Below are positions 1 to 1,638 of a DNA stretch of 64,000 bases, in pieces. Numbering within the stretch: the stretch's first letter is position 1; each line of letters starts with the position of its first letter. A program made the translations under genes and the position numbers. The notes under the pieces are model-generated. The model was not told the DNA's origin, made no database searches, and saw only the letters and a list, made by a program, of their open reading frames with translations. The DNA lies in the IMG/VR virus record IMGVR_UViG_3300021490_000002, positions 1 to 64,000 of that record; one strand, given 5' to 3'. This stretch comes from a virus.

Positions 1-587
1 CTTACGTAAGACATAGCAAACTTTTGGGAAAAAGGTAAAACTACAAAGATACCTTTTTCCCAATGAGTCCCACCATTGCTGGTGTTTTTCCAGCAATGGT
101 GGAATATAGTATGGTCAAAACTGTCAACTGACAGTTTTGACCAGCTCCCTACCATTGTTTCTTTCTCTTTATATAATCCGATAAATACCTTTGCTTGTTT
201 CTCCTCTTTTAATGGAATCCTTTGTTTTTCAATTACTATTTGATTGACACAGTCAATCAAATAGTAATCCCTAGACAATATTTTTGGTGGACGGACACAC
301 AAGCTGTTTTGGAAGGTTATAAGTAAGGGATAGTCTAAACTATCAAGGGATATATCCCTTGATAGTTTAATTTGCGGATTGTTCTTGTGACTATAAGCAC
401 ACTCCACGTCAAAATAAATCCAGTTATCCGTTTCCTTGAGTTTCCTTAAGGAAACGGATAACTTTAATTCAACAATGTTAAAAAATCTTTTCCTGTATCC
501 CTTGAAACCAATAAGTTTTTTGGCTTCAAGAGGATGTTCTCTTAAAAATTTCCTTGCTTCACTGAAAGAATTAAATTTGTTTTGCAT
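1..587 (-). CDS. Hypothetical protein, partial (runs off left edge); missing from the ORF track
   Basis: Manual translation from ATG at 587 (MQNKFNSFSEARKFLREHPLEAKK...KFAMSYV) is open for 195 codons to the window edge; G-rich SD (AAGGGGGG) upstream. Confidence 0.8.
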   Translation of the reverse strand, partial: MQNKFNSFSEARKFLREHPLEAKKLIGFKGYRKRFFNIVELKLSVSLRKLKETDNWIYFDVECAYSHKNNPQIKLSRDISLDSLDYPLLITFQNSLCVRPPKILSRDYYLIDCVNQIVIEKQRIPLKEEKQAKVFIGLYKEKETMVGSWSKLSVDSFDHTIFHHCWKNTSNGGTHWEKGIFVVLPFSQKFAMSYV

Positions 588-600
588 AATAAACCCCCCT

Positions 601-613
601 TAAGTTATTGATT
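601..613. promoter_or_regulatory. IHF-consensus site
   Basis: TAAGTTATTGATT matches YAANNNNTTGATW exactly and is intergenic; could be chance in AT-rich DNA. Confidence 0.35.
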
Positions 614-1213
614 TTATTGACAAATTTCCTTTTGTCCATACATTGTGTTATTGTCCAATGTATGGACAAATTTTATCTCATACCTTTTCAAATAATCTTT
701 AATTTTCCTTTTCAAGGATTTGTACAAGTAAGCGTCAGGGTACTCTATCCCGTCCAGGGATAGCGTATAAGCAAAATTCAAGAGATAATCTTTCAAATGT
801 TCCCTTTCTATCCCGCTTAAGAGATAGGGAACATTTGAAATGATTTTATTTACATAACCATAAACCGATATGGGATTGTCCAAATAATCCCATATCGGTT
901 TAAATTTTTTATTCTTTTTTGTCTTGACAGTTTCAGAGTAGTCTGGATTGTCCATGTACTTTTGGAACAGTCTATGTGCTGTTCCATGTGGACAATCCAA
1001 TATTTCGCCTATCTGACGATAGGTGAAATTAAAGGATTTTCTCAAGACATATACATGCCTTGAGAAAATTCTTCTTTCGTCAAAATTCATTTCATAAATT
1101 TTAGTGATAGTCTTAATCCTTAGTTCGGGATTAAGACTATCACTAAAATTTTTCTCCAGGTTTTTTAACCTGGAGAAAAGATATTTTTTTGTATAGCAAT
1201 TAAGATTTAACAT
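614..1213 (-). CDS. HTH transcription factor, sigma-factor-like (sigma4-like HTH followed by sigma2-like segment)
   Basis: ERRIF...FTYRQIGEILDCPHGTAHRLF (region-4 HTH-like); EYPDAYLYKSLKRKIKDYLKR (ECF region 2.3-2.4-like). Confidence 0.55.
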   Translation of the reverse strand: MLNLNCYTKKYLFSRLKNLEKNFSDSLNPELRIKTITKIYEMNFDERRIFSRHVYVLRKSFNFTYRQIGEILDCPHGTAHRLFQKYMDNPDYSETVKTKKNKKFKPIWDYLDNPISVYGYVNKIISNVPYLLSGIEREHLKDYLLNFAYTLSLDGIEYPDAYLYKSLKRKIKDYLKRYEIKFVHTLDNNTMYGQKEICQ

Positions 1214-1277
1214 CTTTCTTTCTCCAAATTTTTAAAGGTTAAACGAAAAAAAAAGGCAATACAATTTTAAGATAAAC

Positions 1278-1373
1278 TTAAAATTGTATTGCCCACAGAT
1301 AACCAACATAGCAACTAGCGATTATACTAGTTGCTACAAATACAAAATTTTTAACATAGTTTAAAATTTTCAT
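1278..1373 (-). CDS. 31-aa single-transmembrane peptide
   Basis: GAGGT SD 7 nt before ATG; MKILNYVKNFVFVATSIIASCYVGYLWAIQF; ends in a 17-bp hairpin followed by a T-tract. Confidence 0.5.
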   Translation of the reverse strand: MKILNYVKNFVFVATSIIASCYVGYLWAIQF

Positions 1374-1431
1374 TTTCCATACCTCTTTTTTTTCTTTTTT
1401 CCTTGACATTACCAACAATCACTTATCTATA

Positions 1432-1447
1432 TGCTATACCCATGCCA
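1432..1447 (-). promoter_or_regulatory. sigma54-like -24/-12 promoter (proximal)
   Basis: Minus strand TGGCAT-GGGTA-TAGCA(TAT), GG-N10-GC spacing, about 60 nt upstream of the first leftward ORF. Confidence 0.6.
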
Positions 1448-1638
1448 AATGTATGATATACACATAATTTATATAAAATTTTTATAAATATGCGGAATCA
1501 CTGGAAAAATTTTAAAATTGCCAAAATATAGACACCAATTTTTTTGATTTTACATTGACATTTATTTTTATATTGACAAAATTTGAAATAGCGATTTTAC
1601 AAAATTTCATAAATGTATAAATTTTTTGAAAAATATTG

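Follow-up and report, generated by a model that had tools for sequence, protein, structure and literature searches.

The beginning of a viral contig known from hydrothermal-vent metagenomes (IMG/VR record IMGVR_UViG_3300021490_000002) is saturated with perfect hairpins, most of which lie inside reading frames. The window that we analysed is the first 64 kb (64,000 nucleotides) of this single contig of 81,254 bp, which belongs to an uncultured phage. We scanned for perfect Watson-Crick stems, 10 bp or longer and closed by loops of at most 14 nt, and found 13 hairpins between positions 24 and 1336 (stems 10–24 bp); at 791–840 there is one more stem, of 15 bp with a 20-nt loop. The same scan returned 6 hairpins from the other 62.6 kb of the window and 8 from the 80 kb of contig outside the zone, and the density in the zone is about 100 times normal. 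Stem nucleotides make up 32% of the zone, and the hairpin spans, as summed coordinates, cover 535 of its 1313 nt (41%). The hairpin excess is real and far beyond chance, and a literature search found no published description of such a pattern, which is, as far as we could find, undescribed. The reading that we favour, and to which we give a probability of roughly 0.4, is that the stems were born by template switching and retained through an action on the first early transcript of the phage.

A hairpin-saturated zone over three reading frames

The hairpin count of each large gene was compared with shuffled versions of that gene. ORF2 holds 5 hairpins, against a mean of 0.13 (maximum 2) when synonymous codons are shuffled and 0.013 when codon order is shuffled; for ORF1 the figures are 6 observed against 0.10 (maximum 3) and 0.017. 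In 940 kb of other phage loci hairpins occur at 0.07 per kb, with a maximum of 4 in 1.5 kb at any locus. Predicted folding energies give the same picture: at 70 °C the zone folds with −202 kcal/mol, against −96 ± 10 for coding stretches of equal length from the same phage, and sliding 100-nt segments average −6.5 to −9.9 kcal/mol at this temperature, against a genome mean of −2.1. A narrow predicted melting range (95 ± 4 °C) carries no weight here, since hairpin melting temperatures level off with length. Unpaired gaps of 50–167 nt remain between stems, and the sequences of the stems are all unrelated, an all-against-all comparison of arms not rising above the shuffled level; the lone exception is an identical pair outside the zone, flanking the gene for ArdA. 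Searches against Rfam 15 gave no family at gathering score, the generic hairpin matches being sub-threshold (E 0.09–0.9). The first-pass annotation of this DNA, made from its letters alone, had described about 15 mutually different stems over some 40% of 1.3 kb, with nothing like them in the other 62 kb apart from ordinary terminators, and had suggested a codon-shuffled control; the description stands, also against that control.

It had also considered that the palindromes might be chimeras of amplification or assembly. This can be set aside: the zone is not an assembly artefact, because another assembly gives the same sequence and most of the zone is present in 15 or more vent metagenome runs, each with two thirds or more of the sampled words. 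The other assembly is a 5.4-kb JGI contig, L001, identical to window positions 1–1607, and the JGI and Logan assemblies give the same zone sequence across many runs and studies; runs X16–X18 contain just short low-depth fragments of the same phage. Logan contigs built with k=31 stop at H5, a 34-nt perfect palindrome. To the left, L001 has another 3.8 kb with ordinary small genes, and our contig probably starts where it does because the adjoining 26-nt tandem repeat differs in copy number between strains. L001 also allowed the leftward extent of the zone, which the first-pass annotation had asked about, to be mapped: the zone begins some 100 nt before the window start (L001 1695) and ends at 1336 on the right. 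In the folding profile the excess structure is limited to about −100 to +1340, with background on both flanks. These limits enclose precisely the small ORF, ORF2, ORF1 and the palindrome that follows the ORF1 stop codon; adjacent non-coding DNA has no structure excess.

All three reading frames lie on the minus strand. Three tandem exact TGGCAC-N5-TTGCA motifs at 1754–1824 on the minus strand, predicted promoters of the sigma54 type, are directed into the zone and are followed in order by the 31-aa small ORF, hairpin H13, ORF2 and ORF1. After ORF1 come a 31-bp palindrome, a 26-nt repeat array and then further small genes on the same strand, with an ArdA anti-restriction gene (Pfam E=3e-30) further on, also on this strand. 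Judged from sequence, the two larger genes are real and under purifying selection; in ORF2, codon position 3 takes 15 of the 21 strain substitutions.

ORF1 (1–587; complete at L001 1025–1657) encodes 210 aa of no known family and extends 45 nt past the window start. Its homologue P0003 aligns to it at 57% identity with one gap of 1 aa; structure prediction gave no usable fold (pLDDT 33), and the Atlas gave no lead. Six stems lie within it: H1 (24–63; HWEKGIFVVLPFSQ; 14-bp perfect stem, 12-nt loop), H2 (70–102; 13 bp, 7-nt loop, at HHCW / TSNGG), H3 (112–143; 15 bp, 2-nt loop), H4 (232–268; 17 bp, 3-nt loop), H5 (336–369; 17 bp, no loop) and H6 (422–463; 16 bp, 10-nt loop).

ORF2 (614–1213) encodes a helix-turn-helix (HTH) protein of 199 aa with a weak likeness to sigma region 4. 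Its family comprises 19 detectable proteins, mostly of 130–170 aa, which align collinearly to residues ~47–190, the closest being P0004 (50% identical). The predicted fold (pLDDT 79) has a confident core; its matches are weak sigma region 4 or HTH ones alone, and nothing among them indicates a hairpin-binding protein. ORF2 carries H7 in its C-terminal tail (631–670; 15 bp, 10-nt loop), H9 (791–840, the stem with the long loop), H8 over the most conserved motif of the family (861–902; 17 bp, 8-nt loop; KPIWD / NPISVY) and H10 (1036–1069; 11 bp, 12-nt loop). H11 (1096–1151; 24 bp, 8-nt loop) and H12 (1150–1179; 13 bp, 4-nt loop) lie in an N-terminal extension, residues 1–46, that is lineage-specific and absent from 17 of 17 aligned family members. 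Most of this extension (1076–1213, minus strand) is taken up by H11 and H12. It has a GGAG ribosome-binding site of good quality, and palindromes may have formed new coding sequence here. The start regions of both ORF2 and ORF1 are stem-free for 34–44 nt on each side.

The small ORF (1278–1373; 31 aa, hydrophobic, ATG at 1373) contains H14 (1309–1336; 10 bp, 8-nt loop). The first-pass annotation had counted three open reading frames here, and all three exist. ORF1 and ORF2 have homologue families; the small ORF has a GAGG ribosome-binding site and no homologue evidence, and is putative as a gene. The placing of the hairpins inside genes by the first-pass annotation is likewise right in general, with one correction: H13 (1246–1293, minus strand), a 17-bp stem with a 5-nt loop (1255–1293) followed by nine T on the coding strand, stands between the small ORF and ORF2 and is, by prediction, an ordinary intrinsic terminator or attenuator. 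No other stem has this form. The 12 stems inside reading frames are perfectly paired and have no U-tracts; on the coding strand H10, H12 and H14 also satisfy a looser rule (5 T in 8), though they have no real U-run, and the remaining stems do not.

Turnover and apparent maintenance among strains and homologues

The homologues of both larger genes align without insertions (ORF1 with P0003, ORF2 with its family), and these alignments therefore show that each stem arose in place, on an existing conserved frame. Arms inserted as inverted duplications are excluded by the same collinearity.

Run X14 represents a natural strain variant, about 2.6% diverged, which encodes exactly protein P0001, a protein encoded on a 102-kb contig. 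Eleven of 14 stems are unchanged in X14. H10, of 11 bp here, has 16 bp in the variant (1031–1074) through two substitutions in one arm; H9 is lost through three substitutions, all in one arm; H13 has gained two G-U pairs, again with both changes in one arm; and H3 is interrupted, leaving 9 contiguous perfect pairs. In X14, one stem is thus longer and three have lost pairs. Three clustered substitutions in X14 and X18 fall in the loop of H6. Where a stem carries more than one strain difference, the differences thus share an arm in 3/3 cases (3/3, 2/2 and 2/2; chance ~0.06), their direction being unpolarised without an outgroup. At window positions 773–822 (L001 790–839) there are ten substitutions in 50 nt, or about 20% against 2.6% overall, mostly synonymous; this stretch looks like a short recombination patch that removed H9.

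For more distant comparisons we calculated, stem by stem, the maximum number of base pairs that the amino-acid sequence of a homologue could encode. H3, H4 and H5 in P0003, and H7 and H10 in P0004, are at control level and hence not encodable there. In the distant homologues P0006 and P0008 nearly all stems are at control level, H10 in P0008 reaching 10 of 11 encodable pairs, and three phage contigs with relatives of ORF2 (29–40% identity, same GC) have a background level of hairpins. These data show that the stems turn over between strains and relatives.

H8 behaves differently from the stems at control level. In P0004, 16 of its 17 pairs are encodable despite six replaced arm residues (K105R and P106A on one side against I115R, S116L and V117P on the other, and also N113D). 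Random replacements at the same positions retain 11.2 ± 1.5 pairs (P=0.0025, or ~0.02 when corrected for nine tests). Such retention implies up to five paired changes, and H8 looks to have been preserved by changes made in pairs, with amino acids replaced on either arm. The first-pass annotation had proposed a search for compensatory changes in homologues; for H8 such changes appear at the protein level, whereas the strains offered no compensated pair.

A scan for perfect stems that a protein sequence alone could encode found 10 in ORF1 and 12 in ORF2, against about 2.5 in shuffled sequences. P0003 gave 6 (null 2.1, P=0.018) and P0004 gave 5 (null 1.9, P=0.035), rates that exceed those of all 16 other proteins of this phage, and these stems are partly at other positions than ours. 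In more distant homologues the scan found no excess. P0003 and P0004 both come from 2,063-bp Logan contigs that are apparently one and the same; if so, a relative has the same gene pair, and this related module probably has a smaller stem set of its own. P0006, a member of the ORF2 family, is placed by NCBI under a genome bin of Candidatus Njordarchaeia (an Asgard archaeon), on a 3.4-kb contig that is most likely a mis-binned viral fragment.

Proposed origin and action of the stems

Short-range template switching is known to create perfect stems in one event (PMC8794818), and inside coding genes it can rewrite up to five neighbouring residues (PMC8604942). The arms in our zone have the corresponding form, each being the exact reverse complement of adjacent sequence with no net change in length. 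The stems have sharp edges, random-looking flanks and Watson-Crick pairs only, and in four palindromes with loops of 0–2 nt (among them one in the zone, one just past the window start and one farther along the operon) pairing continues through the dyad centre, which adds nothing to an RNA hairpin. We propose that one arm was rewritten as the reverse complement of the other by short-range template switching in DNA replication, since an arm copied in this way would pair perfectly, end sharply and pair through the dyad centre. The first-pass annotation had named local palindrome correction by template switching among its options, and the perfect stems, sharp edges, dyad-centre pairing and one-arm strain changes all fit it. 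No reverse transcriptase gene that might serve snap-back synthesis was found on the contig.

The stems, once made, would have been retained for their action on the transcript of the first early unit. The likeliest roles would be as serial roadblocks or as sites of cleavage specific for double-stranded RNA, throttling or timing two early proteins; a general reduction of accessible single-stranded early RNA is another likely role. A function in the transcript is favoured by the excess tracking the borders of the gene module behind the promoters, by the sparing of translation starts, and by the orientation of the H13 terminator in the sense direction. It is also favoured by the recurrence of the 15-bp perfect style at a fixed offset from four stop codons, by the apparent compensation of H8 and by the lower GC content of longer stems (Spearman −0.58, p=0.009), a trade-off that is expected if a stability threshold matters. 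The structured early mRNA envisaged in the first-pass annotation is thus plausible for what is the first module behind three sigma54-type promoters, on the same strand through to ArdA.

Several observations weigh against this reading. Sense and antisense strands fold equally well, mismatches flanking the stems show no G-U bias for the coding strand (9 vs 5), and neither comparison singles out the active form, RNA or DNA, or the strand; we infer both the transcription of the zone and its folding in vivo. The codon phase of the stems shows no preference. Unpaired stretches of up to 167 nt would make any shielding leaky. Strain substitutions in stems number 6 of 30 where 9.7 were expected (P=0.10), no pair has changed on both sides between strains, and most stems show no clear purifying selection. 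The asymmetry between arms in comparison with homologues is not significant for ORF1 (P=0.40; for ORF2, P=0.04). The evidence from covariation and from the related module derives from protein sequences alone.

A bolder version, which we think unlikely, would treat the stems as a dedicated structure code, maintained in evolution and superimposed on the first early genes. The protein sequence would in part yield to this code, amino acids on the two arms changing jointly so that a stem is kept. Such a code would protect or time the nucleic acid that the host meets first, for example in the face of guide-based or single-strand-specific defences. New stems would come from template switching and turn over between lineages.

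Alternatively, the stems might act as DNA, in the form of cruciforms or single-strand hairpins at a replication origin or during entry, where they might act as a brake on a translocase or nuclease, as primers for the lagging strand or as an origin mark. The strict Watson-Crick pairing and its continuation through four dyad centres, useless to an RNA hairpin, speak for such a role, as do the lack of a favoured strand in folding and the repeat-rich non-coding DNA on both sides of the zone (the TTGACA/TGTCAA spacer at 1540–1720 and the iteron-like 26-nt array past ORF1). However, a templated origin accounts for perfect and central pairing by itself, the limits of the zone coincide with those of genes and transcript while adjacent non-coding DNA lacks the excess, and a DNA role leaves the sparing of translation starts to be explained. 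No structure-specific nuclease, primase site or initiator was identified. The first-pass annotation had suggested hairpins in first-injected DNA and a check against a genome terminus. No such link is supported: the contig is ~80% complete by CheckV, no direct or inverted terminal repeat is present in its 81,254 bp, and L001 continues to the left, so that the zone is not at an assembly terminus. We regard an action as DNA as unlikely.

A functionless local hot spot of mutation would need no action at all. Frequent template switching or hairpin repair, for instance beside the promoter array or an origin, would produce palindromes that perfect themselves by arm homogenisation and are tolerated by two early proteins. 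The sharp stem ends and random-looking flanks, the confinement of strain differences to one arm, the lack of significant depletion of substitutions in stems and the indifferent codon phase are all as such a process would leave them, and homogenisation of arms can imitate compensatory change without selection (PMC8794818). On the other hand, a hundred-fold excess bounded by the borders of a gene module is hard to obtain from mutation rate alone. The best-conserved motif of the ORF2 family lies under H8, in genes that are under purifying selection, start regions are spared, and stem length trades off with GC. We regard a pure hot spot as rather improbable.

It is less probable again that the stems hide the earliest transcript, or spacers derived from it, from type III or type VI CRISPR systems, Argonautes or single-strand-specific RNases. 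Thermophiles commonly have type III CRISPR systems and Argonautes, which accords with the hydrothermal-vent habitat; the zone belongs to an early unit in the same string of genes as ArdA, and whole hairpins measure 28–56 nt, near the size of a spacer. A shield that covers just 41% of the zone, leaves stretches of 50–167 nt open and does not extend to the rest of the early operon would nevertheless be leaky. Finally, an artefact of assembly or amplification, suggested by the position of the zone at the contig start and by several palindromes of 31–37 nt, near common k-mer sizes, or an import of the module from a hairpin-rich genome, is very improbable given identical JGI and Logan sequences in many runs and studies, intact frames collinear with homologues, a natural strain variant that keeps 11 of 14 stems, and homologous genes in three other phages without hairpin excess.

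Known systems, surroundings and implications

Published template-switch or quasi-palindrome mutations (PMC8794818; PMC8604942) resemble the zone in their perfect arms made in place without net change in length, in their occurrence in coding genes too, and in multi-base changes of one arm that rewrite neighbouring amino acids. They differ in being isolated and scattered over genomes, whereas here 14 stems stand in 1.3 kb, over three adjacent genes, with signs of retention. The first-step-transfer or injection-stop region of phage T5 is similarly palindrome-rich, ~1–1.6 kb long and part of the earliest-acting DNA of a siphovirus (10.1101/866236). That region is non-coding and lies in a terminal repeat; it is made up of repeated elements with DnaA boxes and is conserved, in the same order, in related phages (10.1101/866236). 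Our zone is coding, its stems are all different, and three relatives lack the stems; with no terminal repeat found and a location away from the true end of the contig, it is not a T5-type injection stop.

Hairpins also open an early region linked to anti-restriction functions in phage N4, with its early promoters, and in plasmid leading regions with ardA, at Frpo. The N4 hairpins have stems of 5–7 bp, a 3-nt loop and a conserved sequence and are served by a giant RNA polymerase packaged in the virion; Frpo is a single long imperfect hairpin with −35 and −10 boxes. Our phage has no virion RNA polymerase, its giant ORF of 3174 aa matching tape measure families, and stems of 10–24 bp that are mutually unrelated do not make N4-type promoters. 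With the hairpins of phage early operons (T7 RNase III sites, 3′ stabilisers) and with intrinsic terminators, the zone shares the standard terminator formed by H13 and T9. Four stems of exactly 15 bp, 7–9 nt past the stop codons of ORF1, g214, ArdA and g175 and without a U-tract, resemble intercistronic processing or stabiliser hairpins. Unlike RNase III sites, the 12 stems in reading frames are perfect and have none of the typical internal loops.

Rickettsia palindromic elements (RPE), REP and MITE sequences likewise place hairpin-forming DNA in intact coding genes, but they are multi-copy inserted DNA, while the present stems are unique and add no length. With no consensus shared among arms and no inserted DNA relative to homologues, the zone belongs to none of these families. 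It is not a CRISPR array either, having no family of direct repeats and an irregular spacing of hairpins. The first-pass annotation had rejected the REP/MITE and CRISPR assignments, and it was right to do so.

Around the zone, the AT-rich spacer at 1540–1720 contains several TTGACA or TGTCAA motifs, among them the palindrome TTGACAAAAATTGTCAA, and all of these are candidate operator sites or −35 boxes of the sigma70 type. Upstream of the sigma54-type promoters, the 23-nt sequence CTCTCACATATATAGTAAAATTT occurs twice (1853–1875 and 1941–1964), a candidate enhancer site for an activator protein. Just left of the window start (L001 1665–1790) a 31-bp perfect palindrome precedes ~3.5 copies of the 26-nt unit. 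One arm of the palindrome matches the end of the adjoining unit, the array also has an inverted half-copy, and in strain X14 it is two units shorter; the arrangement at this end of the zone is iteron- or operator-like. Hairpins are sparse farther along the operon, most of them lying between genes, and the ArdA gene lies between two identical 33-nt hairpins (L001 3208–3240 and 3814–3846).

Two sigma54-type promoters within 8–30 nt of each other were found in at least 119 IMG/VR contigs (L002–L120), against a chance expectation of less than 1, and sigma54-driven phage operons therefore look widespread. Hairpin zones are not general companions of such arrays: nothing comparable was found at the 119 other loci, where two mild clusters (L073 and L033) are ordinary, partly repeated intergenic hairpins.

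The contig also encodes proteins of a long-tailed phage, namely the tape measure protein, tail fibre proteins and a portal protein, and no tRNA genes were found. It had no blastn match among GenBank phages. Scans of viral contigs with ORF1, ORF2, an alignment of ORF1 and P0003, or P0003 as query gave no relatives, nor did a scan of genome contigs, and a viral-contig scan based on P0004 returned just the two contigs already known.

If the stems are functional, two codes are written on one sequence at an extreme density, with 41% of the zone in stem-loop spans, and selection on nucleic-acid structure can override the choice of amino acids. As a natural record of template-switch mutagenesis within genes, the zone would likewise be the densest, and the birth and decay rates of perfect stems could be measured from it. 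Should it be a pure hot spot, clustered amino-acid changes in early phage genes can reflect palindrome homogenisation and not adaptation. In a vent system with sigma54-type promoters and ArdA, the zone points to a further level, as yet unexplored, at which the very first transcript of the infection may be controlled or protected.

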